A stretch of DNA of 50,753 nt from an uncultured Planctomycetales bacterium (GTDB lineage: Bacteria > Omnitrophota > Gorgyraeia > Gygaellales > JAHJCI01): NCBI GenBank assembly GCA_964592485.1, contig CAZQEY010000010.1, positions 1-50,753 on the forward strand, given 5' to 3'. The notes under the pieces were generated by a model. The model was given only the letters and a program-made list of their open reading frames with translations. It was not told where the DNA came from and made no database searches. Every line of letters begins with the position of its first letter. The first letter of the stretch is position 1. The translations under genes and the position numbers were made by a program. This document shows positions 3,507 through 49,952 of the stretch, one piece after another.

Positions 3507-3552
3507 TTTTGTACCTCCTTTCCTCGCTCCTCCAAGAAAAGAGCAATTTCAT

Positions 3553-3646
3553 ATAACTTAAAATATCCGAATTACTTCGTTTATGCCTCTACATTAGCAC
3601 ATTTTCCGAAGTAATTAATAATTCTCCTTCTAAAACAAAAAAGCAG
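3553..3646. repeat. Copy B of the intergenic repeat; contains a 10 bp perfect inverted repeat (AATTACTTCG/CGAAGTAATT, ~27 nt loop)
   Basis: The same 5' (ATAACTTAAAATA) and 3' (TCTCCTTCTAAAACAAAAAAGCAG) blocks as copy A. Lies between the stop of the 122-aa gene and the Zn-ribbon gene. Confidence 0.7.
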
Positions 3647-3654
3647 CCCCCGAC

Positions 3655-10436: not shown

Positions 10437-11210
10437 ATGATTAGGGTAAAAAAGAACTGGTGGAAAGACTTTTTCAATAATATTTATTTAATTACTGATG
10501 CCCGCAGCGTAGGCGATGTTCATCTTACCTGCCGCGAGGTTGATTTATTAGAGAAGGTTTTGCGCTTGGATAAAACTGACCGCATCCTTGATTTATTTGG
10601 CGGGCAGGGGAGGCACTCAATAGAGCTGGCAAAACGCGGCTATCGAGATTTAACCGTGCTTGATTATTCTGATTATTTGATTAATTTAGGAAGGTGCTCA
10701 GCTAAAAAAGAGAATCTCAAGATAAATTTTTATCAGGGCGATGCACGTTCTACTAAACTTGCAAATAGTAATTATTCTGTTATTATCATAATGGCTAATT
10801 CCTTCGGTTATTTCACCAATGAAAGAGAAAATGAAAAAGTATTAAGAGAAGCACACCGGTTACTTAAAACCGGAGGCAGGTTGCTTCTGGATTTGATAAA
10901 TTCTGAACATGTTAAAAATACCCTCAAGCCCACTTCCTGGCATAGAATTGACAATGATATTGATGTGTTTCGAAAAAGAGAAATTAAAAATAACCTGGTT
11001 AAAACCAAGGAGACTGTAATCTCTCAGCGGAAGGGACTGATTAGGGATGGTAGTTATTGCGAGCGCATTTACACCAAAGCAAGAATCTGCCGATTACTTA
11101 AGAAGGTGGGTTTTAAAAATATTAACATAAAAAATAATCTTTCCCTCCATAAAGAAAATCAAGATTATGGTTTGCTTACCTCAAGGATGATTGTTACCGC
11201 AAATAAATGA
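10437..11210 (+). CDS. Class I SAM-dependent methyltransferase
   Basis: Motif I LDLFGGQGRHS; post-I D; motif LLKTGGRLLLD. Confidence 0.8.
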   Translation: MIRVKKNWWKDFFNNIYLITDARSVGDVHLTCREVDLLEKVLRLDKTDRILDLFGGQGRHSIELAKRGYRDLTVLDYSDYLINLGRCSAKKENLKINFYQGDARSTKLANSNYSVIIIMANSFGYFTNERENEKVLREAHRLLKTGGRLLLDLINSEHVKNTLKPTSWHRIDNDIDVFRKREIKNNLVKTKETVISQRKGLIRDGSYCERIYTKARICRLLKKVGFKNINIKNNLSLHKENQDYGLLTSRMIVTANK

Positions 11211-11287
11211 CCCCCCTATCCTTAATAAAGAAAACTAAAATTATGGTTTACTTACCTCAAGGATGATTGTTACCGCGAACAAATAAA
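11161..11287. repeat. Tandem duplication (~48 bp unit, 75 bp period) of the 3' end of the methyltransferase gene, including the stop codon
   Basis: AAGATTATGGTTTGCTTACCTCAAGGATGATTGTTACCGCAAATAAATGA and AAAATTATGGTTTACTTACCTCAAGGATGATTGTTACCGCGAACAAATAA. Confidence 0.9.
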
Positions 11288-11314: not shown

Positions 11315-12340
11315 TTAAGGACAGCTGATTTGAGCTAACTCTTCAACTGCTTTTTTAATCCGCAACATTCGTTCAGGGGAGGAAGGATGGGTAGAAAGGT
11401 AATTTCTAATCATTGACTGGGGAATCTCAATGGCAAACCTTTCCTGAAAATTTGCGCATACACAGGGGTCAAAACCAGCAAAATAGGTGAATCTCATGCC
11501 AAAATAATCTGCTTCCCTTTCCAGGTCTCGAGAATAACGTGCTTTAAATAAATCAGCGGTACGCATCACTAAATTACCGGTTCCTGGCGCAGCCTCATCG
11601 GCAATCAAGCCCAAGGGTATCCCGAATAAAAGTGATAAAAACGAGCTCAGCTGCGCCTTACTTACGTGGCCACGCACAAAATGCGCCAACTCATGACCCA
11701 GAACCGCAGCAATCTCATCATCTGATTTAGCAAAATTCAACAGGCCATAGGTAACATAAATCGCATTGCTACCAGCTGCCGCGTTAACCTCCTGGATATC
11801 AACCGTTATAATCGGCACATTTACGGGGATTGAACCGACAGTTAGAACAATCTCATCAGACACGCCTCGCCTTTGAATATGTAGTCTGATTGAATCTCCG
11901 ATATTTAATCTGCGGCGATATTGATTAAAATCACTGGTAGAAAAAAACCTATTGCCATCAATAGAAACCAAAATATCTCCTGGTACTATCCCCGCTGCCT
12001 TTGCCGGCGAACCATCAACCACAGCAATAACCGCCAGGCCCTTATCTACCTGAAGGTTATATAACTGCTTAAGATATTTATCCACTTCTGATACATATAT
12101 ACCCAAATAGGACTGAGGCTCTTTTGTGATTTTAACTTCTTCTTGGGGGATATGGGCAATCAGCTGATAGCCGATGTTATTAACCTTGGTTAATTGATTA
12201 AGCCGAAACCCCAAGGATTTGACCTTCAACTCCTCCTGCGCCCTTAAGATTTCCCCCTCTTCAACCGAGGGTCCGGTAATCGTAGCACAGCCGCTTAGGA
12301 AAAATAGGGCTAGAGTCAATAAAATTACATACCGCATCAT
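11315..12340 (-). CDS. Lipoprotein with a PDZ domain and an M48-family Zn-metallopeptidase domain
   Basis: Lipobox LSGC; PDZ GDILVSIDG; HELAHFVRGH (HExxH). The start is placed at MMRYVIL; the ORF-track start is a TTG. Confidence 0.75.
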   Translation of the reverse strand: MMRYVILLTLALFFLSGCATITGPSVEEGEILRAQEELKVKSLGFRLNQLTKVNNIGYQLIAHIPQEEVKITKEPQSYLGIYVSEVDKYLKQLYNLQVDKGLAVIAVVDGSPAKAAGIVPGDILVSIDGNRFFSTSDFNQYRRRLNIGDSIRLHIQRRGVSDEIVLTVGSIPVNVPIITVDIQEVNAAAGSNAIYVTYGLLNFAKSDDEIAAVLGHELAHFVRGHVSKAQLSSFLSLLFGIPLGLIADEAAPGTGNLVMRTADLFKARYSRDLEREADYFGMRFTYFAGFDPCVCANFQERFAIEIPQSMIRNYLSTHPSSPERMLRIKKAVEELAQISCP

Positions 12341-12582
12341 TGTTTTTGTTTTCTCTTTTCGTAATAGCAAAGTAGAATGGCCAATAATATCGAAGGAGGT
12401 AATATAACAGTCAAGGCAAACCCCTTCCCCATCCTCATACTAAATATAACCAAGCCGAGAAATACCATAAACCAGAGAAGTTTTCTTAAGATATGTAATT
12501 TAAACCCGTCACAAAAACAAAATCCCACGAATGAAGCAAATAAGCTCAGGGTTAACCACTGCCAGAAGATTGTATTACCCAT
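12337..12582 (-). CDS. Possible small membrane protein (81 aa, 3 hydrophobic segments)
   Basis: ORF fills the gap between folE and the M48 gene. ATGA-type overlap with the downstream start. No functional motif. Confidence 0.35.
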   Translation of the reverse strand: MGNTIFWQWLTLSLFASFVGFCFCDGFKLHILRKLLWFMVFLGLVIFSMRMGKGFALTVILPPSILLAILLCYYEKRKQKQ

Positions 12583-20817: not shown

Positions 20818-21840
20818 CTAAAATCTATATTTCACAACTGCGGAAGCTATCCAAAAGCAGGAAGTTATTCTATCGTCTACATCAGAAGTTACGCCGACAT
20901 AGGGGCCTGCGTAATAGGATTGGTGCTGGGTGCCGTCCGTATCAATATCCGTGAATTCGCCGCTTATTTGCAGTACCCAGTTAGGCAGGAATTGCCAATT
21001 AGCATCTACATTGACAATATAGGCATCTCCATCGCAGTCTCCCTCAGAAAGTTTATATCTTAAAATATGGTCGTCTCTATCTTCGGCATTAGCCGAAGGA
21101 CTATAGCCAAATCTCAAATTCAACTGAAATTTATCCCCGAATAAGACATTGGTATTGAAACCAAAATAGGGAATCTTGTATTCTACCTCATAATCAAGTG
21201 TATTGCCCGTAACATATGTGGTGTAATCGCCGGCATACGGACCATAACCGACCTGATTCGTATCGCTAATCTCGTATTCAAATTTTTGATACCTGTATCC
21301 TACCATCGGGCCGATACTTATATTCTCGGCAGGATAAAAACTAAACACATAGTTTATGTCAATTATATCAACATCCGCATCTGCTTCTGATTCCGAATAA
21401 ATATCCAACCCGGGGTGAGTGGTGCCGTAATAGTAAATGTCATAAGCATCATTCAACCAGTCAGAATCTTTCATTTCTCCTGCGTCATTAGTAATATCGG
21501 TAAACCACCCTAAAGTTAATCTGGCCCTGTCTTGCTTTTCATTATAGGGATTTTTATAAGCTAAGGCTGCCTCAACGCCTAATAAAAAATTATCTAAAGG
21601 AAACTCTAACTCGCTCTCTCCTTCATAAATGACAGCTTCAGTAAAATTTATATGGTAGGTTGTATCTCCTCTGATATACCCTGTCTGCAATCCCAAGGTA
21701 GCGCGCATATTCCCCATCCAGTCTAATTCTTCTTCGGTGAAGATATTTCGCAAATCTGCAAAAAGAGAACTCTCTTGAGCAAATAAAAGAGTAGGAAAAA
21801 TTAGAAACAAACCAAGAATACAGATTACTTTAGACCTCAT
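20818..21840 (-). CDS. Outer-membrane beta-barrel protein
   Basis: Signal peptide MRSKVICILGLFLIFPTLLFAQ. Rich in alternating Y/G/T/D. C-terminal ...VKYRF with a terminal Phe. Confidence 0.6.
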   Translation of the reverse strand: MRSKVICILGLFLIFPTLLFAQESSLFADLRNIFTEEELDWMGNMRATLGLQTGYIRGDTTYHINFTEAVIYEGESELEFPLDNFLLGVEAALAYKNPYNEKQDRARLTLGWFTDITNDAGEMKDSDWLNDAYDIYYYGTTHPGLDIYSESEADADVDIIDINYVFSFYPAENISIGPMVGYRYQKFEYEISDTNQVGYGPYAGDYTTYVTGNTLDYEVEYKIPYFGFNTNVLFGDKFQLNLRFGYSPSANAEDRDDHILRYKLSEGDCDGDAYIVNVDANWQFLPNWVLQISGEFTDIDTDGTQHQSYYAGPYVGVTSDVDDRITSCFWIASAVVKYRF

Positions 21841-25227: not shown

Positions 25228-26346
25228 TTAACAAATACGAGGCAAGGGTTCAGAGGTCAACATATCAAGGATGCGGTCTGTACCCAATGTGGTTTTAAGC
25301 AACACCATACCCCGAGGCTTAGAGACTATCCTGCCTATAATTCGGGCAAATCTTCCGAGCTTCTGCCGCTTAAGATATTTTAAGACACTGTCCGCCGAAT
25401 CAGATTTAACTACCAGAACTGCCTTTCCTTCATTAGCAATGTATAAAGGGTCAATCCCCAATAATTCACTCGCTGCCTTTATCCGACTGGCAATGGGAAT
25501 CTTTGCCTCGTGGACAACAATGCCCAAATTAGCGGCCCGGGCAATTTCATTCAAGGTTGTCGCCAATCCTCCGCGGGTAGGGTCGCGCATAAATTTTATC
25601 CCGCACCTTCTTGCCTTACTGCTATTTTTCCCTCGAGAAGGTGCGGGATTTATTGCCTCATCTTTTAATAAGGGAATCAACAGCTTATCCAGGCTAGCGC
25701 AATCGCTCTTAATATTTAGACCAAAATCCATTCCCTTGCGCTGGGTTAATATGCTTAATCCGTGTTCAGCAATCCTTCCTGTGATGATAATCTTGTCGCC
25801 GACTTCGATATTTTTTATTTTAAAATCCCTGATAACCCTGCCTATACCTGTAGTATTGATAAACAACTTATCGCAGGCTCCCCTCTCTACCACCTTTATA
25901 TCGCCGGTAATAACCTTAACCTGAGAACTCTTAGAGGCAGAAGAGATGGCATTAACCACGCGCTCTAATAATGAATAATCCAGCCCCTCCTCAATAATTA
26001 AGGCCAGGGACAGATAAAGGGGCAAGGCGCCAGAAACTACCAGATCATTTATCGTGCCAGAAACAGCAAGTTTACCAATATCCCCACCGAGGAAAAATAG
26101 GGGATGGACTACAAAGGAATCGGTAGTAAATGCTATTGCCTTATCCCAAACCTTTGGATATCTATAGAGGACTCCGCCACGTGGAAGGGTGAGAGAATTA
26201 TCTTTAAAGTCAATAACTGCGCTATCAGTTAATTTATTTAGCAGCGAATTACTGAATTTGGGCAGGATTAGATCTCTGATTAAATTATGCGTTAACTGAC
26301 CACCGCTTCCATGAGCTAATAGAATCTTCGAATTTTGTTTTATCAT
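25228..26346 (-). CDS. hypE: Hydrogenase maturation protein HypE (carbamoyl dehydratase), with a 17-codon in-frame insertion
   Basis: N-terminal LAHGSGGQL and C-terminal LPRIC. 372 aa versus ~336 aa. The insertion SAPSRGKNSSKARRCG sits where E. coli HypE has no counterpart. Confidence 0.9.
   Translation of the reverse strand: MIKQNSKILLAHGSGGQLTHNLIRDLILPKFSNSLLNKLTDSAVIDFKDNSLTLPRGGVLYRYPKVWDKAIAFTTDSFVVHPLFFLGGDIGKLAVSGTINDLVVSGALPLYLSLALIIEEGLDYSLLERVVNAISSASKSSQVKVITGDIKVVERGACDKLFINTTGIGRVIRDFKIKNIEVGDKIIITGRIAEHGLSILTQRKGMDFGLNIKSDCASLDKLLIPLLKDEAINPAPSRGKNSSKARRCGIKFMRDPTRGGLATTLNEIARAANLGIVVHEAKIPIASRIKAASELLGIDPLYIANEGKAVLVVKSDSADSVLKYLKRQKLGRFARIIGRIVSKPRGMVLLKTTLGTDRILDMLTSEPLPRIC
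25599..25649. repeat. 51 bp palindromic element (ATCCCGCACCTTCT...AGAAGGTGCGGGAT) inserted in-frame within hypE
   Basis: 14 bp perfect arms with a 23 nt loop. Length is divisible by 3. Same core as the elements at 32420, 35554 and 49829. Confidence 0.8.
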
Positions 26347-27478: not shown

Positions 27479-28627
27479 TTAAAGAGAATTCTCTAACGGC
27501 CTGAATCTAAAGTTTTTAAGAAACCCCTCCAGCACCTTAGCGCCCTTATAAAGATAATCGATCTTGATATACTCATTGCTGCTATGCGCACAACCTGAAC
27601 AGCTAAATCCGGTAGCAACTGCAGGAATATTCTTGTTTTGGAAAAAGGTAATTACCGTTGCCCCCTCACAGCCGGCTATCCTTGGCTTTGCTTTTAAAAA
27701 ACTATGCATTGCCTTTTTTAAATACTCCACCAAGGGATGACGGCAATCAATCTGCGTTGGTGGCTGGACTGCTTCAATCTCGATTTTAAATCTCCTGGCA
27801 TAACCCTTGATAATCTTTCTTATATCCTGAATAATCTTGGAAGCAGACATCCCGGGCAAGAATCTTAAATCTAACTCAAACTCACACCAATCAGCAACAA
27901 CATTAACCTTATCTCCGCCGGATATCTTGCCAATATTTATTGTCGGCGGGCGAAGATAGGGATTCTTTTTATAAATAAACTTGTGCGACTTTATTTCTGA
28001 TAAAGCTTTTAACGCCGCATCAATGGCATTTATTCCCTGCCAGGGATAGGCTCCGTGGGCAGACTTTCCTTTAATCTTTACCTTAAGATGAATTAAGCCT
28101 TTTTGCACAACTACAATCTTAAATTCATCTGCATCTAGAATCAGGCCAGCCTGCGGTTTTAATATTCCCTTATCAAGCAGAGGAATAAGGCCGAGGCTTG
28201 AACCGGTCTCTTCATCAGCCGTAGCAGCAAGAATTAAATTATAATCCAAGATGTGTCTTTGTTCAACAAGGCTCTTGATTACCTCTAAGAGCAGTGCCAG
28301 ATTTCCTTTATCATCTGAAGCGCCCCGGCCATAGATACGACCATGCTGCAGCACTGCCCTGAAAGGCGGAAACCTCCAATTATTGCCTGCCGGAACAGTA
28401 TCCAGATGGGGACTTACCAAGAGATTACAATGCCTATTCCTTCCCTTTAAGGTCGCTACCACATTGCTGCGATTCTTTTTAAACTCATAGATTTTTGGCT
28501 TAAGCCCTAGATTCTCTAAATACCTTTTTACAAAACAGGCAATTCGGTATTCATTTCCTGGCGGATTCTCCGAAGGGATACGGATTAACTGCTGTGTTAA
28601 TTTAATCAAATGCTTTTTATCAATCAT
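27479..28627 (-). CDS. M20-family metallohydrolase (ArgE/DapE-like)
   Basis: HLDTVP and GASDDKG motifs. Start overlaps the upstream stop (ATGA). Confidence 0.85.
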   Translation of the reverse strand: MIDKKHLIKLTQQLIRIPSENPPGNEYRIACFVKRYLENLGLKPKIYEFKKNRSNVVATLKGRNRHCNLLVSPHLDTVPAGNNWRFPPFRAVLQHGRIYGRGASDDKGNLALLLEVIKSLVEQRHILDYNLILAATADEETGSSLGLIPLLDKGILKPQAGLILDADEFKIVVVQKGLIHLKVKIKGKSAHGAYPWQGINAIDAALKALSEIKSHKFIYKKNPYLRPPTINIGKISGGDKVNVVADWCEFELDLRFLPGMSASKIIQDIRKIIKGYARRFKIEIEAVQPPTQIDCRHPLVEYLKKAMHSFLKAKPRIAGCEGATVITFFQNKNIPAVATGFSCSGCAHSSNEYIKIDYLYKGAKVLEGFLKNFRFRPLENSL

Positions 28628-31044
28628 TTCTGCTGAAAAATCATCCTTTCCTTAATCTGAGTTGATATGCCCTCAATAAAGGTTTTAAATTTTAAATATT
28701 CCGAAAGCGCAACATATCTTTTTTTTATCTGGGTTCTCTGTTTAAAGCGAAGATGACCATCTTCAAAGTGGTATTCAACACTTAAATCTAACCAAGGATT
28801 GCTTTCCTGAAAATCAGCCGGTAAATACTTTAACTTAACCCCTCGCGGTAAAACCACATCCAACTCAGCCTCCCGAATACTTGGCATTCCTAAATCAATA
28901 GGATATCGCCGCGATTGTTTTGCAATCACTGAAGTATCCAAAAGCGCCAATTGAGGAAATATCCTTAGATTACCGGCCTTAGTCCAATATTCTCGACCAG
29001 AGAAAGAATAATTCAAGATTACATTCTTATTGAGGTCATCTAAATTCTGGATATCATATTTTATTAACCGGGCAGCGGTGGATACCCCTTGGATTGCCTG
29101 CTTGAGGCTTTCGGAGATTGCCTCTTCGGTAGAGTACTTAAGCCAGAGACGCTGACCCGCATCATATAACCCTGTGGTAGCAACCATCTTTTCTGCCTCG
29201 ATTGTTCCATCAGGACTAATCTCCATTTTAAGAATCTGCCTTAGACTATTATGCTGAGCAGAATAGACAGGCGTTGTTTCAATTTGATAACCAGTATCGG
29301 TAAGGATAAAAATCCTTCTTTGCTGGTCATCGGCCGGCAAATTTCCAAAAGAACAGGTTGAGCAGGTAGGGTCAAGAAAGACCAAATCCTCATCTAACTT
29401 GACTACGGCAATACAATGATTAAAATTAACCGAAGGGAAATCTTCTTCTAAGTCAAGATAATCATCCGTGCCGATTAATACCGGGTAGCTCTCAAGGCCA
29501 ATTTCGCGTAACATTGCAACCAGAAGTATCGCCTGGTCCTTGCAATCGCCATATTTATTAAAAAAGATATCAATTGCTTTATGCGGCTCATACCCCGCCT
29601 GACCATATTCTACGGCAACATAGCGGATATCCTCGGCGCTGAAGTTATAGATTGCTCGCGCCTTATCCAGAATTGTTTCCTTATCCTGGGTTAAATCCTT
29701 GACCTTCTGTTTTATTGCTTGATTTACCTGAATTTTATCTTTGGCTAAATTCCACCACCAGTCATAAATCTCCTGCCAGGAATCAAAGGTAGAAATAAGA
29801 ATAATCGGATTAATCTTTGAATTCGAAGGCATATTTGCCTCAGGAATGATTGCCGGGATATCCTTAAATTCCCAAAGATATTCCTTGTATTCTGAATATT
29901 CTTTTACCACCGGCTCTAACTCTGCCTGGAATTTATTGTAATCTGAATTAAAGATTTTGTAGTGCAGTGGTTTTTCTGCCGGAATAACAAACTTAAAGTT
30001 AGCCTGAATAACCGGCTCGAGTTCCTGCAAATGATAAGAAATAACAAGATCGTCTTCATTAATCAATTGATTGCGATAAATTTTGTATTTATATTCGATA
30101 ATACAACCATGGGTAATCTCAGGGAACGAGATTATCCGTGCCCTGGCATTGCTATAAAGGGGAAAATTTAAATATTTAGAAACATCGCGTATATGGCGGC
30201 TACCCACAGGAACAACCACACCATCCGGCAGAATAGTACGCGCATATTCTAACTCTACCTTTTCATAGGTAGAATCATAACTAATCACAATTTCAGAGAA
30301 ATCCTGTTTACCCCGTTCATTTAAAATCTTAATAAGGAGATGTTCGGAAAAGACAGCCGAATTTTGCAGACTGAGTTCGACCTCTTCATCACAAAACAAG
30401 ATTAACGCTCCGGCATTAGGGTATTTTTCCGGCAGAGGAGCAGCTTTAATTATCTCCTGCAGGCTGGGTGATAAATCCTCTAAACGTAAATTCTCCCCTA
30501 ATCGGGTAATTAACTGGATTCGGTTCTGGGCGCGAGTTCTAAATAGCCCCTCATTAATCTGGCGATAAATATCCAAGGCCTGGTCATAGAGATTGAGCTT
30601 TTCGCAAACCTCTCCGTGATAATACAGAGCTTCACTGTCCGGATTATCTATCTTCTTGAATGCATCCCTTGCCTCGGTAAAATTATTAGTCTTATATAAA
30701 GCAAGGGCACGGTATTTTTTTGCCTCGGGGAGAGTTGTCTCTGATAGGTATTGGCTGGCTAATTCATATTCGGCCTGCTGATAATAAAGCAGGCCCAATT
30801 CGAAATAAGCTTGGTCTAAATCCTTGCCTTGGGCAATCAAGTCCTCGTATTTAGCAATGGCACGTTGGTAATAAGCCCGTGATTGCTTAGTATAATCCCG
30901 CGCTTCATCAAGTTTGCTCTTTTGAGTACAACCAGTTGAAAAATTCAAAATACAAAAAGCAAATATTAAAATGATAGACTGGAATTCAAAATTCTTTAAA
31001 AGATTTTTGATTTTTGATTTTCTATTTATATTTATAATACGCAT
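28624..31044 (-). CDS. Secreted or lipoprotein with N-terminal TPR repeats, a DUF3857-like region and a transglutaminase-like cysteine protease core
   Basis: YGDCKDQAILLVAMLREIGL is a TGase-like Cys motif. Start placed at MRIININ (AAGGAG SD); the ORF-track start lies inside hypD. Signal peptide ILIFAFCILNFSTGC. Confidence 0.7.
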   Translation of the reverse strand: MRIININRKSKIKNLLKNFEFQSIILIFAFCILNFSTGCTQKSKLDEARDYTKQSRAYYQRAIAKYEDLIAQGKDLDQAYFELGLLYYQQAEYELASQYLSETTLPEAKKYRALALYKTNNFTEARDAFKKIDNPDSEALYYHGEVCEKLNLYDQALDIYRQINEGLFRTRAQNRIQLITRLGENLRLEDLSPSLQEIIKAAPLPEKYPNAGALILFCDEEVELSLQNSAVFSEHLLIKILNERGKQDFSEIVISYDSTYEKVELEYARTILPDGVVVPVGSRHIRDVSKYLNFPLYSNARARIISFPEITHGCIIEYKYKIYRNQLINEDDLVISYHLQELEPVIQANFKFVIPAEKPLHYKIFNSDYNKFQAELEPVVKEYSEYKEYLWEFKDIPAIIPEANMPSNSKINPIILISTFDSWQEIYDWWWNLAKDKIQVNQAIKQKVKDLTQDKETILDKARAIYNFSAEDIRYVAVEYGQAGYEPHKAIDIFFNKYGDCKDQAILLVAMLREIGLESYPVLIGTDDYLDLEEDFPSVNFNHCIAVVKLDEDLVFLDPTCSTCSFGNLPADDQQRRIFILTDTGYQIETTPVYSAQHNSLRQILKMEISPDGTIEAEKMVATTGLYDAGQRLWLKYSTEEAISESLKQAIQGVSTAARLIKYDIQNLDDLNKNVILNYSFSGREYWTKAGNLRIFPQLALLDTSVIAKQSRRYPIDLGMPSIREAELDVVLPRGVKLKYLPADFQESNPWLDLSVEYHFEDGHLRFKQRTQIKKRYVALSEYLKFKTFIEGISTQIKERMIFQQK

Positions 31045-32381: not shown

Positions 32382-32522
32382 TTCAATTCGCCCGCCAAAG
32401 TTCTGTGGCGGGCGAATTGAACCCCGCACCTTTTTCCTACGAAGCAACTCTGCACAGTAGAAAGGTGCGGGGTTAATTCCGACTTACAACTTATGTCCTT
32501 TGAATAAACTCAGGACATAAGT
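32382..32522 (-). promoter_or_regulatory. Three consecutive strong hairpins in the hypC leader: a 15 bp TTCAATTCGCCCGCC hairpin, a 14 bp AACCCCGCACCTTT hairpin and an 11 bp ACTTATGTCCT hairpin
   Basis: Perfect inverted repeats at 32382-32421, 32420-32474 and 32489-32522. Confidence 0.7.
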
Positions 32523-32603: not shown

Positions 32604-33794
32604 TTAATGGGTCCAAGAGGCAACCGCTGCCTGCCCTAGACTGATGCTTATATCCGAGCAAGGCAGCATCTTATGAGTTAAAATATGAAATCCCGCTTTT
32701 TCTAATAAACCCAAACTTAACTTAAGTAGAATCTTATTCTGGAATACTCCGCCGGTTAAAATAACAGTATTAATCCGGGTGCCGCCTCTTATTCTCAGGC
32801 AGGTCTTTCTAATCATATCGGCAACAGTCAGATGAAAACAAGCAGCAATCTCTTCCTTACTGCAGTCATTTTTCAAATCAGCAATAATCTCCCTAAGGGT
32901 CAAAACCGGATCGATGACAAAAACCTGCCCAATCTTTTTAATCGCAAACTGATAACTTCTCGGCTGAGATTTATAACCAGAAGCGAGCCTTTCTAAATTT
33001 ATCGCTGCCTCAGCCTCGAATCCAACCCGGTAAATCTCTAAGACCAGGCAAGCAATAGCATCAAAGAGCCGACCAATGCTTGAGGCGGGAGGTGAATTAA
33101 AATTCTGCCTCCACATCTTTTCTAGGATAATCCAATTTTTTTTATTTATCCGTTTGAGAAAATCCAAATCTAAATCTAAAAAATTATTTCCAAAAGCCAG
33201 ACAAAGCCAAGCCGAAGCTACTCTCCAAGGTTCATAAATCGCTTTCTTGCCTCCTAAGAGAGGGATATATCTTAAGTGGGCTGCCCGTTTGAAATCCCGA
33301 TAATCAGCAACTAAGAATTCTGCGCCCCAGAGTGTTGAATCACTTCCAAAACCAGTGCCATCAAAGGCAACACCAATAACCCTTTGATTGCTAAGTTTAT
33401 TCTCAAGCATACAAGAAGCAATGTGGGCATGGTGATGTTGAACAGGAATAAGTCTTGGCCCATCAGAAATTTTTGCTCTGCATTTTGCTAAAGCACTATT
33501 TCTAGCGGAATTTATATTTTTTACTTTTTGCAAGTCGAGGATATATTTCGTCGAGAAATATCCCGGATGTTTGTCATAGGCAATAATCCTGGGTGACAGA
33601 CCAAAGCGTTGGGGAATTAAACTTATTCTCCTTTGAAATTTTTTAAAATTATCCGGTATCTCTAAATCGTTGATTACTTCGTTGATAAAAGCAGATCTAC
33701 GGTAAGCAAAGCAAAGGCTATTCTTTATATCTGCTCCCACTGCCAGTATTGGCTTCTTAATTTTAAAGGGTAAATCTATTTCTGACCAAGACAC
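32604..33794 (-). CDS. hypF: HypF-like carbamoyltransferase, Kae1/YgjD-like C-terminal domain only. No acylphosphatase, Zn-finger or YrdC domains in this ORF.
   Basis: PILAVGADIKNSLCF and QHHHAHIASC match HypF C-domain motifs. GTG start. 396 aa versus ~750 aa for full HypF. Confidence 0.65.
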   Translation of the reverse strand: MSWSEIDLPFKIKKPILAVGADIKNSLCFAYRRSAFINEVINDLEIPDNFKKFQRRISLIPQRFGLSPRIIAYDKHPGYFSTKYILDLQKVKNINSARNSALAKCRAKISDGPRLIPVQHHHAHIASCMLENKLSNQRVIGVAFDGTGFGSDSTLWGAEFLVADYRDFKRAAHLRYIPLLGGKKAIYEPWRVASAWLCLAFGNNFLDLDLDFLKRINKKNWIILEKMWRQNFNSPPASSIGRLFDAIACLVLEIYRVGFEAEAAINLERLASGYKSQPRSYQFAIKKIGQVFVIDPVLTLREIIADLKNDCSKEEIAACFHLTVADMIRKTCLRIRGGTRINTVILTGGVFQNKILLKLSLGLLEKAGFHILTHKMLPCSDISISLGQAAVASWTH

Positions 33795-34690
33795 TTGTCT
33801 TCTCCTATTTCTAAATTTAATATATTGTCAATCCTAAAGGTTCTTTCCTGCCTTCTCAAATTACAAAACCCTACGAGGTAAACCCCTTTAGAGACATCAT
33901 ACTCTTTTTCTGTTGCCCTATAGTCTCTAATGGCGCCCCCTTTCTGAATTATTGCCTTAGGTATAACCTCCCGTTCGGTAAGCTTGGCGCCAGCTCCGGA
34001 GAGATACCTTATCTTAAGACTTACTCCTAAATCCAAAGCTCGTTGAATTTGGGCAATCTTAGCGCTATTTATATTATCTAACAATTGTGAGTTTAAACCA
34101 AAAAGGCTAACAAATTGCTCAAAATCAACGACTCCTTTCCCAATAAGGGTGGAATTCAGACGATTAAAAACCTCCGCAGCTAACTGGGCGTCAGAAAGCG
34201 CACGATGCTTCTGGAGACTGTCTATGCCGAGTGTCTTGGCTACAAATCCGAGCGAATAGCTCCCTAAACCGGGCAACATCCTCTTTGCCATAATCAAAAT
34301 ATCCACTATCTGTAATCGCTCAGGAAGCCGGCAGTTGATTAAGTTTGACTCTGAAGATAAAAAGGCAAAATCAAATGGGGCGTTATAAGCAGCGAGGCAG
34401 GATTCAGAGATAAAATCCAAGAATGAAGGCATTACCTCGGAAATATCAGGAGCATCTTTAAGCATCTCCGGAGTAATCTGATTGACTACGAACGCAGCGG
34501 GAGAAATTCTTCTTTCTCCCGGATTTACCAGAGACTGAAATACCTCTAATCTCTGCTTATGCTTGTGCTTGTGCTTGTGCCTTAATCTAACTGCAGCAAT
34601 CTCAACAATACGGTCACCCGATTCTGGAGTAAGACCAGTGGTTTCCAAATCAAAGACACTGAATTCTATCTCGTTGATATTTTTAAGCAT
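33776..34690 (-). CDS. DnaQ-like DEDDh 3'-5' exonuclease fused to a C-terminal WYL-like domain; contains an (HK)4 repeat
   Basis: Exo I FDLETTGL and Exo III H...D. C-terminal YLVGFCNLRRQERTFRIDNI is WYL-like. Start taken at MLKNINEI. Confidence 0.65.
   Translation of the reverse strand: MLKNINEIEFSVFDLETTGLTPESGDRIVEIAAVRLRHKHKHKHKQRLEVFQSLVNPGERRISPAAFVVNQITPEMLKDAPDISEVMPSFLDFISESCLAAYNAPFDFAFLSSESNLINCRLPERLQIVDILIMAKRMLPGLGSYSLGFVAKTLGIDSLQKHRALSDAQLAAEVFNRLNSTLIGKGVVDFEQFVSLFGLNSQLLDNINSAKIAQIQRALDLGVSLKIRYLSGAGAKLTEREVIPKAIIQKGGAIRDYRATEKEYDVSKGVYLVGFCNLRRQERTFRIDNILNLEIGEDKCLGQK
34555..34578. repeat. Hexanucleotide microsatellite (GCTTGT)4 encoding HKHKHKHK inside the exonuclease-WYL gene
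   Basis: gcttatgcttgtgcttgtgcttgt. Confidence 0.8.
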
Positions 34691-34808
34691 AGGCACAATT
34701 TTGTCTCTTAATAATATAATCCAGATAATTACATGTAGAATTGGGAGAAATTTACCCCATTAGAAAGAAAGCATAATTCCAGAGATAGATGCAACTTTCT
34801 AACGGCGT

Positions 34809-35553: not shown

Positions 35554-35632
35554 CGCCCCGCACCTTTTCTTTATTCTTCTGGTTTTTATTTACAAATTTA
35601 ACTATATTTGAACATCAAGAAGGTGCGGGGCG
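35554..35632. repeat. Palindromic element copy (CGCCCCGCACCTT...AAGGTGCGGGGCG, ~53 nt loop) between acyP and the phosphoesterase gene
   Basis: 13 bp arms with compensatory flanking CG. Starts 2 nt after the acyP stop. Confidence 0.75.
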
Positions 35633-42189: not shown

Positions 42190-42380
42190 GTTCACTTAGT
42201 AAGCTAAGCTTATATCCAGCTGAAGGCTGGAGTAAAACATTAATCTCTACTAAATCTTTGGGAGAATCAATCTTTTCCAGATACATAATTTTGTAAGCTA
42301 AGCTTTTATCCAGCGGAAGGCTGGAGCAAAACATTAATCTCTACTAAATTCTTGGGAGAATTAATCTTTTCCGGATATAT
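42190..42380. repeat. Tandem ~93 bp duplication that includes the dxs translation start (MYLEKIDSP) and an upstream CCAGC-TGAAG-GCTGG hairpin
   Basis: Units at 42200-42290 and 42293-42380 plus the native copy at 41990-42020. Creates the artefactual 83-aa ORF 42083-42334. Confidence 0.85.
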
Positions 42381-42615: not shown

Positions 42616-42674
42616 AGGATTTTACCTCCAGTTTATTTTTTACCATAAAGGCTCAAAGTCACAGAGTTTTTTAA

Positions 42675-42790
42675 GAAAACTTTGTAACCACAGATAAACA
42701 CAGGTAAACACTGTTAAATTTTCATAATAAAAATACGAAAGTCTTTTTCTTTCTTCTGTGTTCATCTGTGGTTTATGCTTTCTTATGCTT
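42675..42790. mobile_element. MITE-like element copy 1 with terminal inverted repeats (AACCACAGATAAACAC...GTGTTCATCTGTGGTT), between xseA and xseB
   Basis: Ends are conserved with copy 2 (46289-46405); the internal sequence differs. An extra partial end CCTCTGTGGTT lies at 42827-42842. Confidence 0.7.
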
Positions 42791-44152: not shown

Positions 44153-44478
44153 TCCTGAACAACATTCTCAATTCTTGAGCGGTCGGGTTCTTGGATATCG
44201 ATAAATTCGATTCCCGTATCAAAATTACCCCCTCTTCGAAGCGCCCAAGCAATCCTCCCATTACACTCTATAGGAACTCCTCCATCCTTTAAATAAAGAA
44301 GAATCTCCACAGGACAAGACTGAGGCAATGCCTTGGATAGAACTACGCAAATTCCTCCTGCACCTATATTTTCGGTATGAGTAGAGAAAACATGTTTTAA
44401 ATCACTTCTTAAAACAACAACCTTGCATGGATAATCTGCGCGCGGAAACCGGCGCCTATTAATGCTATTCCGCCTCAT
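44131..44478 (-). CDS. PilZ-domain (c-di-GMP binding) protein
   Basis: RRFPRADYP (RxxxR) and NIGAGGICV (D/NxSxGG-like). Start at MRRNSI, which has an AAGGAG SD. Confidence 0.65.
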   Translation of the reverse strand: MRRNSINRRRFPRADYPCKVVVLRSDLKHVFSTHTENIGAGGICVVLSKALPQSCPVEILLYLKDGGVPIECNGRIAWALRRGGNFDTGIEFIDIQEPDRSRIENVVQECLRESI

Positions 44479-46390
44479 CTTGCCCTGCTCCTTTCTTCTG
44501 GCCTTCATTAGGTTTTTCCCCTATCGGCTCTTCAGGCTTAATCGGGGTTACTTGCTCCGCCTCTTCAACCTCCACAGAGACTTCTGGTTTTTTATCCATC
44601 ACAATCAAGACCACTGAATACGGCTCCAAAATTAAGGTCTCCTTATAGGTAGTAACATCCTTAATCTCTTTTTCTTCTCGCGGCATAAATGCGCAATCCA
44701 ATCGGCAGGATTTATCTACGATATATTTTTTATAGATATAATCATCCTTAAGATTGGTCAAATTTAAATTTATATTCTGAGACTGGGTAATCAAGGATTT
44801 CGCCATTTTATTTAAAGTAATTGCCTCTTCAATCTTTGCCTTTATCCTTTTGTCTAAGCGCAAGGTTTTTAGAGGAATCTCTGAATTTTTAATCCTCTCC
44901 CATTTATCGGAATGTATTAAATTTACCAATATTCTTGCCAATCTGGGGTGCAATTCAGCCAGATGTCGAGAAAGATAATCCCTGGCAAGCCTGGGGTCAA
45001 TATATTTGAACAAAAATAAGGCGAGGCCTGTTTCTGTCTTGGTGGCAATTATGCCGACAAATTCATCATCCAGGCGCGAGGCAATAAACATCTCGCTACC
45101 CAGCATATTGAGCATACTAATTACATTAAACATCGATTTTGCTCCGCCGGTGTATTTGACATGCTCCGACTCAAACCAGAATAAGCCGACATTTCGATTT
45201 ACCCCTTGTTTATTATTTTTAAAATCCTCCAGGCAAAAGAATATTTGATAATCAATGCCTGACTTTAGCATATTCCTTATCCGGCTGGGGATAAAGCTGG
45301 CAGCGACATAAGACTCCCAGCCTCGCTTGGGTTCAAAGTTTAACCCCGTATCGTAGTTCCATTCACTAATAATTAGAGGTATAGTTGAGTCTAGGCCAAA
45401 ATACGAAAGCCATTCGCGAATAAGTTTTGGAACTATATTTTTATAACAGGTAATTTCACTTTCGGCCAATGGGTCGCTGGTATAGGCATGCCAGCTAATA
45501 AAGTCCAGAGGAAGTCCCTGTTGAGAACAGAAGCGAATAAATTCGTAGATAAGGCTTTCTTCGGGATAGAAAACGGTATTGCCTTCCAAATTCTGGAACC
45601 ACCATGTTACTGCCGGGCCGCCGATGCGAATGTCACGGTTAGTCTCTTTTTCTAATTCCTTTACGCTCTGGGCTACTGCTTGATAAATATTGAGATATTC
45701 TTTTTTCTGCCCTAAAAAGAAATCGTCCGAATCCGGAGCGTTCCATATCTCGTACCAGATATCATAACCCTTCTCGCAACTCAAATAGCGGATAATATGC
45801 TTAACCAGCTCCTTGAACGCGCCGATATCCCAGGGGGAACTTTTCTTATCCAAGACCTTACCTAAGCCCGGAGGCATACCATACAAATTCAAAAGAATGA
45901 TTCCTCCAGCCGAATTTATATTTTTAATCACTGTCGAATAGTTTTCCAGAAATTCGGCCTGCATCTCTTTATCCTTAGCCAGTTGGATAAACTCCCAAAG
46001 GTCAAACTGTAAATGAAAAATACCTCCGCTCAAATCAAGACGTTCGTTGAGTTGGGCTAATACTTCGGGCGCAGCCAAGTTCTGCGGCCAGGTCGGCTGA
46101 TAATGAAACCCCCGGCCGCTTAAATCTATGCCTGGCTTTCTAAGAAGATTCGGCGTTGGTTTTGTCTTACCGGTTATATCCAAGTTGAAATCGATATCGT
46201 TACCTTGAGCGAAAGTAAAATCGCCTATAAAATTCAAAATGCAAAATGCAAATATAAGAATAAAAAAACAAAATCCAGATATTTTTAAAAAATCTTTGCA
46301 ACCACAGATAAACACGGGTAAACACTGCTTAGCATAGAGAATGCTATAAATACCGACCGCTTTTCTCCTCTTGTGTTTATCTGTGTTCAT
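44465..46390 (-). CDS. Secreted TIM-barrel glycoside-hydrolase-like protein with an acidic low-complexity C-terminal tail. The N-terminal ~35 codons, including the ATG, are supplied by MITE-like copy 2.
   Basis: IWYEIWNAPD resembles the GH5/GH39 NEP motif region. Signal peptide ILIFAFCILNFIGDFTFAQ. Start uncertain. Confidence 0.55.
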   Translation of the reverse strand: MNTDKHKRRKAVGIYSILYAKQCLPVFICGCKDFLKISGFCFFILIFAFCILNFIGDFTFAQGNDIDFNLDITGKTKPTPNLLRKPGIDLSGRGFHYQPTWPQNLAAPEVLAQLNERLDLSGGIFHLQFDLWEFIQLAKDKEMQAEFLENYSTVIKNINSAGGIILLNLYGMPPGLGKVLDKKSSPWDIGAFKELVKHIIRYLSCEKGYDIWYEIWNAPDSDDFFLGQKKEYLNIYQAVAQSVKELEKETNRDIRIGGPAVTWWFQNLEGNTVFYPEESLIYEFIRFCSQQGLPLDFISWHAYTSDPLAESEITCYKNIVPKLIREWLSYFGLDSTIPLIISEWNYDTGLNFEPKRGWESYVAASFIPSRIRNMLKSGIDYQIFFCLEDFKNNKQGVNRNVGLFWFESEHVKYTGGAKSMFNVISMLNMLGSEMFIASRLDDEFVGIIATKTETGLALFLFKYIDPRLARDYLSRHLAELHPRLARILVNLIHSDKWERIKNSEIPLKTLRLDKRIKAKIEEAITLNKMAKSLITQSQNINLNLTNLKDDYIYKKYIVDKSCRLDCAFMPREEKEIKDVTTYKETLILEPYSVVLIVMDKKPEVSVEVEEAEQVTPIKPEEPIGEKPNEGQKKGAGQDEAE

Positions 46391-46405
46391 CTGTGGTTTA
46401 TGCTT
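46289..46405. mobile_element. MITE-like element copy 2 (same termini as copy 1), overlapping the 5' end of the GH-like ORF
   Basis: AACCACAGATAAACACGGGTAAACACTG...GTGTTTATCTGTGTTCATCTGTGGTTTATGC. Confidence 0.7.
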
Positions 46406-46429
46406 TTAATTGGAACCTTGATATACGAA

Positions 46430-48885: not shown

Positions 48886-49057
48886 TTTATCAAAACCTCC
48901 TTTCCTTATTATAAACTGAGATTGAATTTTAAGCAAGCCCCGTTAGGAATTTTTATTTGACGTATTAGCAAGCAGTATTTCTAACGGGAGTCTAGTTATA
49001 ACTTTTTATTAACCTTTGGAATTCAGTTGAAACAATAAAGAGGAGATCTTTGTCCAA

Positions 49058-49285
49058 GCTTTAGCCTCAGCTAAAGTCAGGTATTGTTTCGGGCTGAACT
49101 TCGATTGAGACTAAACTTTGATCAAAGGCTTTGCTCAAACTCCAGCCTCAGCTAAAGCGCTGCTTTAAGCTTAAACTTCAGTCAAGACTAAACTTTGATC
49201 AAAGGCTTTGCTCAAACTTTAACCTCAGCTAAAGTAAAATATTGTTTTAGGCTGAACTTTGGTTGAGGCTAAACTTTGATCAAAG
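49058..49285. repeat. About 3 tandem copies of a 68-83 bp unit, each containing palindromes CTTTAGCCTCAGCTAAAG and CTTTGATCAAAG, in the long rny leader
   Basis: CTTTGATCAAAG at 49116, 49193 and 49274. CCTCAGCTAAAG occurs three times. Confidence 0.8.
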
Positions 49286-49854: not shown

Positions 49855-49952
49855 TTTTTAATTATTGTCTTGAACCCGCCCTCTTAAAAGGTACGGAATG
49901 AATATTACCCAAAATCCACCAATAATATTTTAATACGTAAAAGGTGCGGGGT
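49829..49952. repeat. Palindromic element copy (AACCCCGCACCTTTT...AAAAGGTGCGGGGT, ~95 nt loop) spanning the 5-FCL start codon
   Basis: Left arm lies within codons 5-9 (KGAGL). Right arm is 15 nt after the upstream gene stop. Confidence 0.75.

Follow-up and report, generated by a model that had tools for sequence, protein, structure and literature searches.

A family of AT-rich, partly palindromic DNA modules in coding and non-coding contexts, two copies of which head unrelated, putatively exported proteins of an Omnitrophota contig

Two unrelated genes share leader-coding DNA

We analysed a contig of 50,753 nucleotides from a bacterium assigned to the Omnitrophota (CAZQEY010000010.1, assembly GCA_964592485.1; the whole stretch is called the window hereafter), in which two minus-strand genes begin with related DNA that appears to encode the front of a signal peptide. 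This shared DNA is called the module, and its most conserved 27 nucleotides the core. The features are as follows; a slash marks a predicted cleavage point here and below, and L and P numbers denote other loci and orthologous proteins, respectively.

28624..31044, minus strand: gene 1, coding for a lipoprotein of 806 residues with TPR, DUF3857 and transglutaminase-core domains (Pfam matches; an independent gene call begins at the same ATG)
30928..31044, minus strand: predicted signal-peptide coding region of gene 1, from M1 to the lipobox Cys39 (MRIININRKSKIKNLLKNFEFQSIILIFAFCILNFSTG/C; from the translation)
31002..31023, minus strand: A-rich heptamer tract of gene 1, AGAAAATCAAAAATCAAAAATC, which encodes RKSKIKN and is the remnant of a left arm (from the sequence; an identical tract is present in the orthologous locus L144)
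30940..30966, minus strand: 27-nt core of gene 1, ATATTTGCTTTTTGTATTTTGAATTTT, encoding IFAFCILNF in T-rich heptamers (sequence match; family-profile hit at 30940-30996, E 1.1e-6)
44465..46315 (or to 46390), minus strand: gene 2, coding for a GH39-like protein (Pfam match; candidate starts GTG 46315 and ATG 46390)
46229..46255, minus strand: 27-nt core of gene 2, ATATTTGCATTTTGCATTTTGAATTTT, identical to the cores of L010, L023, L055 and L059 (sequence comparison)
46208..46296, minus strand: right half of the gene 2 module with the c-region up to the likely signal peptidase I site (FTFA or TFA before QG; profile envelope 46229-46296, E 4.2e-7)

The ATG of gene 1, at 31044, is preceded by a GAAGGAG Shine-Dalgarno sequence 6 nt upstream, and the start of the gene overlaps the hypD stop codon (31022-31024); all named homologues of gene 1 are from Candidatus Omnitrophota. 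Read from the sequence, the leader (...KSKIKNLLKNFEFQSIILIFAFCILNFSTGC) has a charged n-region (R2, R8, K9, K11, K13 and K17), a 13-residue hydrophobic stretch and an FSTGC lipobox. The h-region, SIILIFAFCILNF, runs directly into S-T-G-C, in which position -3 of the lipobox [LVI][ASTVI][GAS]C is S rather than L, V or I. The lipobox cysteine is residue 39, which makes the leader unusually long; the orthologues end in L[ST]GC.

The leader of gene 2 (...CKDFLKISGFCFFILIFAFCILNFIGDFTFAQG) has an h-region and an AXA-like TFA/QG. No ATG is found between the h-region and a miniature inverted-repeat transposable element (MITE) that lies immediately upstream (see below). The only in-frame starts are the GTG at 46315, in an arm of the MITE, and the ATG at 46390, within the MITE, neither of them with a Shine-Dalgarno sequence, and database look-ups of the product from either start gave no recorded protein. 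Two other exported proteins of the window, a lipoprotein (11315-12370) and the protein encoded at 20818-21840, have ordinary leaders. The family profile found no third copy of the module in the window, and scans for promoters and terminators around the two copies gave no more sites than in shuffled sequences.

The cores of genes 1 and 2 are identical at 25 of 27 nucleotides. Both differences, GCT/GCA and TGT/TGC, are synonymous, and the encoded IFAFCILNF is part of a run of 11 identical residues, ILIFAFCILNF. A weaker similarity extends over about 55-85 nucleotides, with 71% identity over 85 ungapped nucleotides, or 65% over an anchored stretch of 81. No core-like match arose in 100 dinucleotide shuffles, 300 codon-preserving shuffles of both leader regions reached at most 21 matches in 27, and a binomial estimate that uses the T-rich composition of the h-regions gives a probability of at most 5e-4 across all leader pairs of the window. 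Over the same anchored 81 nucleotides, gene 1 is 73% identical to L059, which comes from another metagenome, and gene 2 is 74% identical to L059 and 73% identical to L023. Each window copy is closer to foreign copies than to its partner, which makes it unlikely that genes 1 and 2 exchanged this DNA recently. The two copies are thus independent members of one dispersed family, and not each other's closest relatives.

The initial annotation of this DNA had pointed out a near-identical stretch of about 70 bp that encodes the signal peptides of two unrelated proteins. The shared DNA is real in the core, but the wording overstates the likeness of the 81 to 85 nucleotides as a whole. The host proteins are indeed unrelated in domain content (TPR, DUF3857 and transglutaminase as against GH39-like), and the n- and h-region anatomy of the translations is consistent with a signal-peptide role in both. 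The annotation had also allowed that the similarity might reflect hydrophobic-codon bias, with no copies elsewhere; the codon-preserving shuffles and the census that follows show otherwise.

The module belongs to a dispersed family

The peptide IFAFCI(L/F)NF was back-translated to a degenerate DNA pattern and this was run on public collections. Further copies, for which the initial annotation had proposed to search the genome, were found at 35 loci in one-genome-per-species contigs and at 103 loci in JGI metagenome contigs; viral contigs gave no match to the pattern. Although the pattern leaves synonymous positions free, the 128 distinct matches are almost the same in DNA: TGC is found 113 times and TGT 15 times, GCA 82 times, and the prevailing codons otherwise include ATT, TTT and AAT. 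Among these matches, one exact 27-mer is found 22 times and another 19 times.

A right half of about 55 nucleotides is common across copies (consensus AAAATTTTGRATTTTGCATTGTCATTTTGATATTTGCATTTTGCATTTTGAATTTT). It is coding in the Omnitrophota metagenome-assembled genomes (MAGs) represented by L010, L023, L055, L059 and L080, and non-coding in L007, L116, L002 and L006, from MAGs labelled Patescibacteria, Saccharibacteria and Aminicenantia. The module is also present in contigs of 53-66% GC, where it forms an island of 23-37% GC, and two copies lie within a few kb of each other on the same contig in L128, L011, L046, L047 and L116.

A scan of the window and 37 loci against Rfam found nothing over the module at the gathering score, only rRNA, tRNA, tmRNA, RNase P, riboswitches and a group I intron elsewhere. 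Scans of five module leaders against NCBIfam and Pfam, including the YSIRK and KxYKxGKxW models, gave no match above the cut-off. Literature searches by exact sequence, for Omnitrophota signal peptides and for coding repeats returned analogies only and no description of the module. A protein word search with a 43-residue leader gave no match, which is not evidence of absence, as the leader is probably outside the index. Thus neither a Pfam, NCBIfam or Rfam model nor a paper in the library searched describes the module.

A full copy is an imperfect palindrome of A-rich and T-rich heptamers

A full copy of the module is an imperfect palindrome of about 60-110 nucleotides, in which a variable centre separates an A-rich from a T-rich arm. 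The left arm is made of the heptamers AAAATGC, AAAAATC and AAAATTC and often starts with ATGCAAAA, and the right arm of the complementary heptamers GCATTTT, GATTTTT and GAATTTT. Because ATGCAAAA is complementary to TTTTGCAT, the left arm often bears a start codon. In translation, (AAAAATC)n reads K-N-Q-K-S-K-I and (ATTTTGC)n reads I-F-A-F-C-I-L, the codons for FCILNF being the reverse complement of those for KIQNAK. A typical leader is MQKSKIKNQK...KIKNFEFCIVILIFAFCILNF, followed by [ILMF]-G-C or A-x-A. In these terms, the left arm of gene 1 is degraded and its right arm intact, and gene 2 retains the right half only.

A significant inverted partner (z > 5) is found upstream in about 34 of some 125 copies. 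Folds were predicted for copies in different contexts:

L002, inside a 23S rRNA gene: -64 kcal/mol
L064, non-coding: -46 kcal/mol
L021, non-coding: -42.5 kcal/mol
L107, coding: -39 kcal/mol
L137, coding, with the ATG in the stem: -37 kcal/mol
L023, coding: -37 kcal/mol

Coding copies head unrelated protein families

In about 25 cases the module forms the in-frame N-terminus of an open reading frame (ORF) of at least 80 codons, nearly always in one and the same frame. These copies head at least 13 unrelated families, mostly in Omnitrophota and typically exported:

LysM with M23 peptidase: L023 and L089
Amidase_3: L055; L019 has only a Cu_amine_oxidN1 domain, which is also found in L055
HlyD-type membrane-fusion proteins: L034 and L080
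Solute-binding protein: L074
ApbE: L119
BamA/Omp85: L133
CtaG: L107
ATP synthase subunit b: L048, in which the module forms an extra N-terminal hydrophobic segment ahead of the usual membrane helix (625-1173)
NHL propeller: L118
Memo-AMMECR1: L045 and L058
DUF3568: L050
PSD3 cytochrome: L137
DUF3857-transglutaminase and GH39-like: window genes 1 and 2

Most of these families are exported proteins or lipoproteins. Together with the n-, h- and c-region anatomy of the leaders, the known export of the host families suggests that the module leaders direct the proteins to the Sec pathway. L023 retains n-region DNA without an in-frame start codon.

Non-coding copies and copies in rRNA genes

Many copies have in-frame stop codons on both sides and are non-coding. 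In L002/L070 the module lies inside a 23S rRNA gene, and in L037 and the second copy of L104 inside 16S rRNA genes. The copy in L019 directly follows a tmRNA gene, and that in L028 stands beside a tRNA gene. A ribosome-binding site and a start codon follow the module in only 7 of 57 non-coding copies, so that no fixed position relative to genes is apparent. With so few instances, the idea that they act as 5'-untranslated regions was dropped.

L037 also has a group I intron (1511-1815) beside the 16S rRNA gene that holds the module hairpin.

The module is patchily present among orthologues

The cytochrome family of L137 (Vicinamibacterales-type) is encoded on a contig of 66% GC, in which the leader is an island of 23-37% GC. 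Orthologues with 87-99% identity have the module (MQNSKFKMQKTKFKIQIAIFAFCILNFALITAFTAAQ), orthologues with 79-81% identity have an ordinary GC-rich leader (MSSRATRPALAIALAGVLIASMTGVFTASQAP), and more distant ones have variant or GC-enriched versions of the leader. The loci are syntenic: the upstream gene ends in ...WAYLSPDA* in each, and the module comes next in L137 and L140 but is missing from L141.

Among the orthologues of gene 1, some with only 52-54% identity have almost the same leader, such as P0034 (...KKSKIKNQKSKLQFKIQNFKFWIVILIFAFCILNFLCGC), and closer ones (74-77%) carry other heptamer variants, for instance IFIFHFSFYILHF and LLPFTFYLLPF; plain leaders and leaders with further inserts are found as well. 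Between gene 1 and the P0034 locus, L144, the same codons are used at the same residues at a frequency of 0.75 in the leader and 0.47 in the mature part. In the gene 2 family, P0128 (73% identity) has the leader MQKS...CFCIVILIFDIWILNFSGTLSFA/QG, also read as ...FCIVILIFDIWILNFSGTLSFA/QG, and other orthologues have plain leaders. Between orthologues with and without the module, the flanking DNA has diverged too far for insertion borders or a target-site duplication to be made out.

Three further observations concern the same positions. At the module-free, Acidobacteriota-type locus L141, the corresponding intergenic position (1330-1470) is taken by a GC-rich palindrome (GACGAACCGCGG...CCGCGGTTCGTC). 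The gene 1 orthologues P0006, P0015 and P0010 have a different leader palindrome, ...SPQSLVHS...STIDYRLWT..., the codons of whose halves would be mutual reverse complements. Further inserts are found in the same leader region of the gene 1 orthologues P0002, P0008, P0037 and P0064.

A separate MITE lies next to the module of gene 2

Two copies of the MITE are present in the window:

46276..46406, no strand assigned: MITE copy 2, repeat unit with common flanks; the element itself spans 46300-46398 (DNA fold z -6.1)
42662..42781, no strand assigned: MITE copy 1, repeat unit with flanks, between xseA and xseB; the element itself spans 42686-42773 (DNA fold z -6.5)

The ends of the element are AACCACAGATRAACACAG, and both copies fold as hairpins. 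The repeat unit exceeds the inverted repeat by 8 nucleotides at one end and by 24 at the other, and the 24-nt flank of copy 2 (46276-46299, which corresponds to 42662-42685; 88% identity over 52 nucleotides) extends into the upstream edge of the module in gene 2. At L143, the locus orthologous to that of gene 2, the ymdB stop codon is followed after 4 nucleotides by ATGCAGAAATC..., with an ATG and a complete module and no MITE. In the window, the counterpart of the stretch with the ATG and the A-rich arm is occupied by MITE copy 2. Gene 2 thus has neither the ATG nor the A-rich arm of the module because a separate MITE took their place. Secondary inserts within the leader are also found in L019, L089 and the orthologues P0002, P0008, P0006 and P0015, and the leader region seems to be a permissive site for insertions.

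The initial annotation had correctly placed MITE copy 2 directly upstream of the gene 2 module, and had proposed from this that the module might be part of a larger mobile repeat. The latter idea does not hold for the MITE: copy 1 comes without a core, the orthologue has an intact module without a MITE, and more than 100 other copies of the module, among which the annotation had suggested looking for the same neighbour, have no such MITE alongside.

Origin of the module

The module is a DNA family: its copies are alike at the DNA level, stand in coding and non-coding contexts and are patchily present among orthologues. The signal-peptide function of these copies and their spread as a repeat element are inferred. 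The reading that we favour, with reasonable though far from full confidence, is that the module is a dispersed palindromic repeat that is tolerated, or has been co-opted, as a Sec signal peptide. Since Lys, Asn and Gln codons are the reverse complements of Phe, Ile and Leu codons, the element reads in either orientation as a start codon, a Lys-rich n-region and a hydrophobic h-region, which corresponds to the first two-thirds of a Sec signal peptide. The cleavage region would come from the host gene: the lipobox FSTG/C in gene 1, for processing by Lgt and LspA, and the AXA-like TFA/QG in gene 2, for signal peptidase I. Copies would persist where they are harmless or useful: between genes, within variable helices of rRNA, and in frame where the coding sequence of an exported protein begins. 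As the translation of the module mimics the front of a signal peptide, in-frame copies at the starts of such genes would be tolerated or even of use.

The main alternative is that the module is a lineage-typical signal peptide, comparable to YSIRK, kept by selection on the protein and by vertical descent, the likeness in DNA being due to AT-rich codon use and heptamer slippage. This would account for the single frame of almost all coding copies and for vertical persistence, as many gene 1 orthologues at 50-77% identity and the gene 2 orthologue P0128 have the same type of leader; moreover, the host families are genuinely exported, and the differences between the cores of the window are synonymous. 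It does not account for the same DNA outside any ORF and in rRNA genes, nor for AT-rich islands that run against the codon usage of hosts of 53-66% GC, nor for the fixed synonymous choices, with TGC preferred to TGT (113 against 15) among codons that otherwise end in T. Charged residues stand inside the presumed h-region of several orthologues (LIFEFCIF, LIFDICIL), L023 has n-region DNA without an in-frame start, and no curated model covers the leader. For these reasons we regard a protein-level leader as unlikely, though it is the strongest of the competing explanations. Less probable still, although it could operate alongside a dispersed repeat, is that the heptamer tracts are contingency repeats in which slippage by 7 nucleotides would shift the frame and turn export or expression on and off. 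Tandem units of 7 nucleotides, which is not a multiple of 3, are indeed found in each half of the leader, gene 1 having three of the AAAAATC type and other copies up to 4-5. Orthologues differ widely in the length of the n-region, L023 is without an in-frame start, and there is a precedent in the opa genes (PMC3960869), all of which would suit slippage. Yet the tracts, of 2-5 units, are imperfect and shorter than those known to be phase-variable, and in non-coding and rRNA copies there is no reading frame that slippage could switch.

Three further explanations concern the window itself. Both h-regions are T-rich, and the genome has a GC content of 41%, which would favour a chance likeness of two hydrophobic leaders; given the shuffles and the binomial estimate, chance is rejected with near certainty. 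Gene conversion or a recent recombination within the genome, which could have moved the leader between genes 1 and 2, would fit the sharp 27-nt block of 25 identities between flanks that are far less similar. However, the partners are less alike (65%) than either is to L059 (73-74%), the core of gene 2 is the family consensus found in other MAGs, and the module is already present in orthologues of both genes in other Omnitrophota, so that such an event is most improbable. As to the shuffling of a signal-peptide cassette that the initial annotation had considered, the module does behave like a cassette over evolutionary time, with its presence and absence among close orthologues of three families, and only a recent recombination between genes 1 and 2 has to be given up. 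That the module is the end of the adjacent MITE, or was brought in by it, is suggested by the 24-nt flank, which shares the upstream edge of the module in gene 2 and is similar to the centres of other copies. This is largely refuted, and we give it very little weight: MITE copy 1 runs into the xseB ribosome-binding site and not into a core, gene 1 has a module without a MITE, the gene 2 orthologue has the full module without one, and no such MITE lies beside more than 100 other copies.

Several results weigh against a dispersed palindromic repeat, our favoured reading. The almost exclusive use of one reading frame in coding copies points to selection at the protein level. The copies in the window form no long hairpin, with predicted folds in coding DNA of -17 kcal/mol for gene 1 and -18 kcal/mol for gene 2; the A-rich tract of gene 1 is only weakly complementary to its T-rich arm (z 3.6), and gene 2 has no such inverted partner (z 0.7). 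Across the family, the complementarity of left and right arms is 42.0 within a copy and 39.3 between copies, a difference reached by 10 of 5000 permutations. As pairing with a copy's own arm is barely above pairing across copies, the dyad symmetry belongs to the family consensus, and we do not claim selection for pairing. Between gene 1 and L144, the leader is 73% identical in nucleotides and the mature part 58%, but the best windows of the mature part reach 0.80. We found no transposase, target-site duplication or clean empty site, although no search was aimed at an autonomous element. The taxon labels are those of the MAG records. The pattern search is biased in what it ascertains, as it fixes the third heptamer, and some of its matches are unrelated coding sequence on the opposite strand (L033, L035 and L036); it is thus proof of the family's existence and no measure of its abundance.

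More tentatively, the module could be a palindromic cassette that spreads horizontally across phyla, provides, in whichever orientation, both a start codon and a working Sec signal peptide to any ORF that it comes to precede, and colonises rRNA helices as well; we consider this possible but doubtful.

Comparison with known systems

Rickettsia palindromic elements (RPEs), which Ogata and colleagues reportedly described in 2000 (cited in PMC2759123), are said to range from non-coding DNA and RNA genes to in-frame positions within protein-coding genes. Like the module, they are short palindromic repeats that are patchy among orthologues and are tolerated, as the peptide that they encode does little harm. 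The two have no sequence relation, however, and RPEs are found inside mature proteins and in one genus, whereas the module lies at the very 5' end, where it gives a start codon and a signal peptide, consists of A/T heptamers and is found in several phyla.

YSIRK and KxYKxGKxW are leader motifs conserved at the protein level, with curated TIGRFAM/NCBIfam models and no non-coding copies. As with the module, one stereotyped leader is found on many unrelated exported proteins; unlike them, the module matches no model and has non-coding hairpin copies. Intervening sequences are hairpin expansions in bacterial rRNA genes, and the copies in L002/L070 (23S), L037 and L104 (16S) resemble them as AT-rich stem-loops within rRNA genes. 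To our knowledge, intervening sequences have not been linked to DNA that codes for signal peptides.

The RU-2 repeat of Yersinia, a MITE-like intergenic repeat, contributes by its translation to the predicted signal peptide of YPO1552 (Delihas; PMC2759123). The module shares with RU-2 the translation of a repeat into a predicted signal peptide, but RU-2 does so at a single locus and forms only part of the leader, whereas the module heads at least 13 families and gives the ATG, the n-region and the h-region. PARCELs combine dyad symmetry in coding DNA, a punctate distribution across distant taxa and membrane-targeted proteins, in the form of tandem domains of 25 residues (PMC2996958); the module differs as a single N-terminal unit that would act as a targeting signal, and not as a tandem amphipathic array. 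The leaders of Neisseria opa genes contain CTCTT coding repeats that are long, perfect and proven to be phase-variable (PMC3960869). In both cases short tandem units that are not a multiple of 3 lie in the leader-coding DNA and encode its hydrophobic part, but the tracts of the module are short and imperfect. By sequence or defining features the module thus fits none of these systems, being an in-frame palindromic repeat that appears to have been co-opted as coding sequence.

Implications for secretion and annotation

Signal peptides are usually viewed as evolving in place, by point mutation, whereas here one DNA recurs at the heads of many unrelated exported proteins, in genomes that differ greatly in base composition, and is found as a non-coding hairpin too. 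If the cross-phylum cassette considered above is real, it would be a general route by which genes gain, replace or extend a secretion signal, and would account for the leaders that form AT-rich islands in Acidobacteriota genes of high GC content. As a spreading element, the module would provide a simple mechanism by which a protein becomes exported and the secretome is remodelled in little-known phyla such as Omnitrophota, Patescibacteria and Acidobacteriota, and would be a natural, compact candidate for an export tag. For annotation, the module calls for caution: gene callers place wrong starts or truncate the gene, as in several orthologues and gene 2, and low-complexity masking conceals the leaders in homology searches.

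Other repeats in the window

Other short repeats are present in the window. Between xseB and dxs (42196-42380) lie two tandem units of 94 bp, each of which carries a small hairpin and a decayed copy of the 5' end of dxs (ATGTATCTGGAAAAGATTGATTCTCCC, encoding MYLEKIDSP); the first of them runs into the 3' end of xseB. Upstream of the RNase Y gene (49048-49285) there are about three tandem units of some 77-80 bp, each with the palindrome CTTTGATCAAAG. A tandem duplication of 76 bp (11144-11284; 88% identity) is found at the 3' end of a methyltransferase-like gene (10437-11210), and a segment of about 40-100 bp is repeated with 82-86% identity downstream of two genes for small membrane proteins (2844-2910 and 3546-3651). 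At 25622-25648, 32413-32481, 35604-35630 and 49925-49951, the motif CCCCGCACCTT...AAGGTGCGGGG with a hairpin follows a gene, probably as an intrinsic terminator. Finally, the exonuclease-like protein encoded at 33776-34696 has an HKHKHKHK run, a short simple-sequence repeat in coding DNA.

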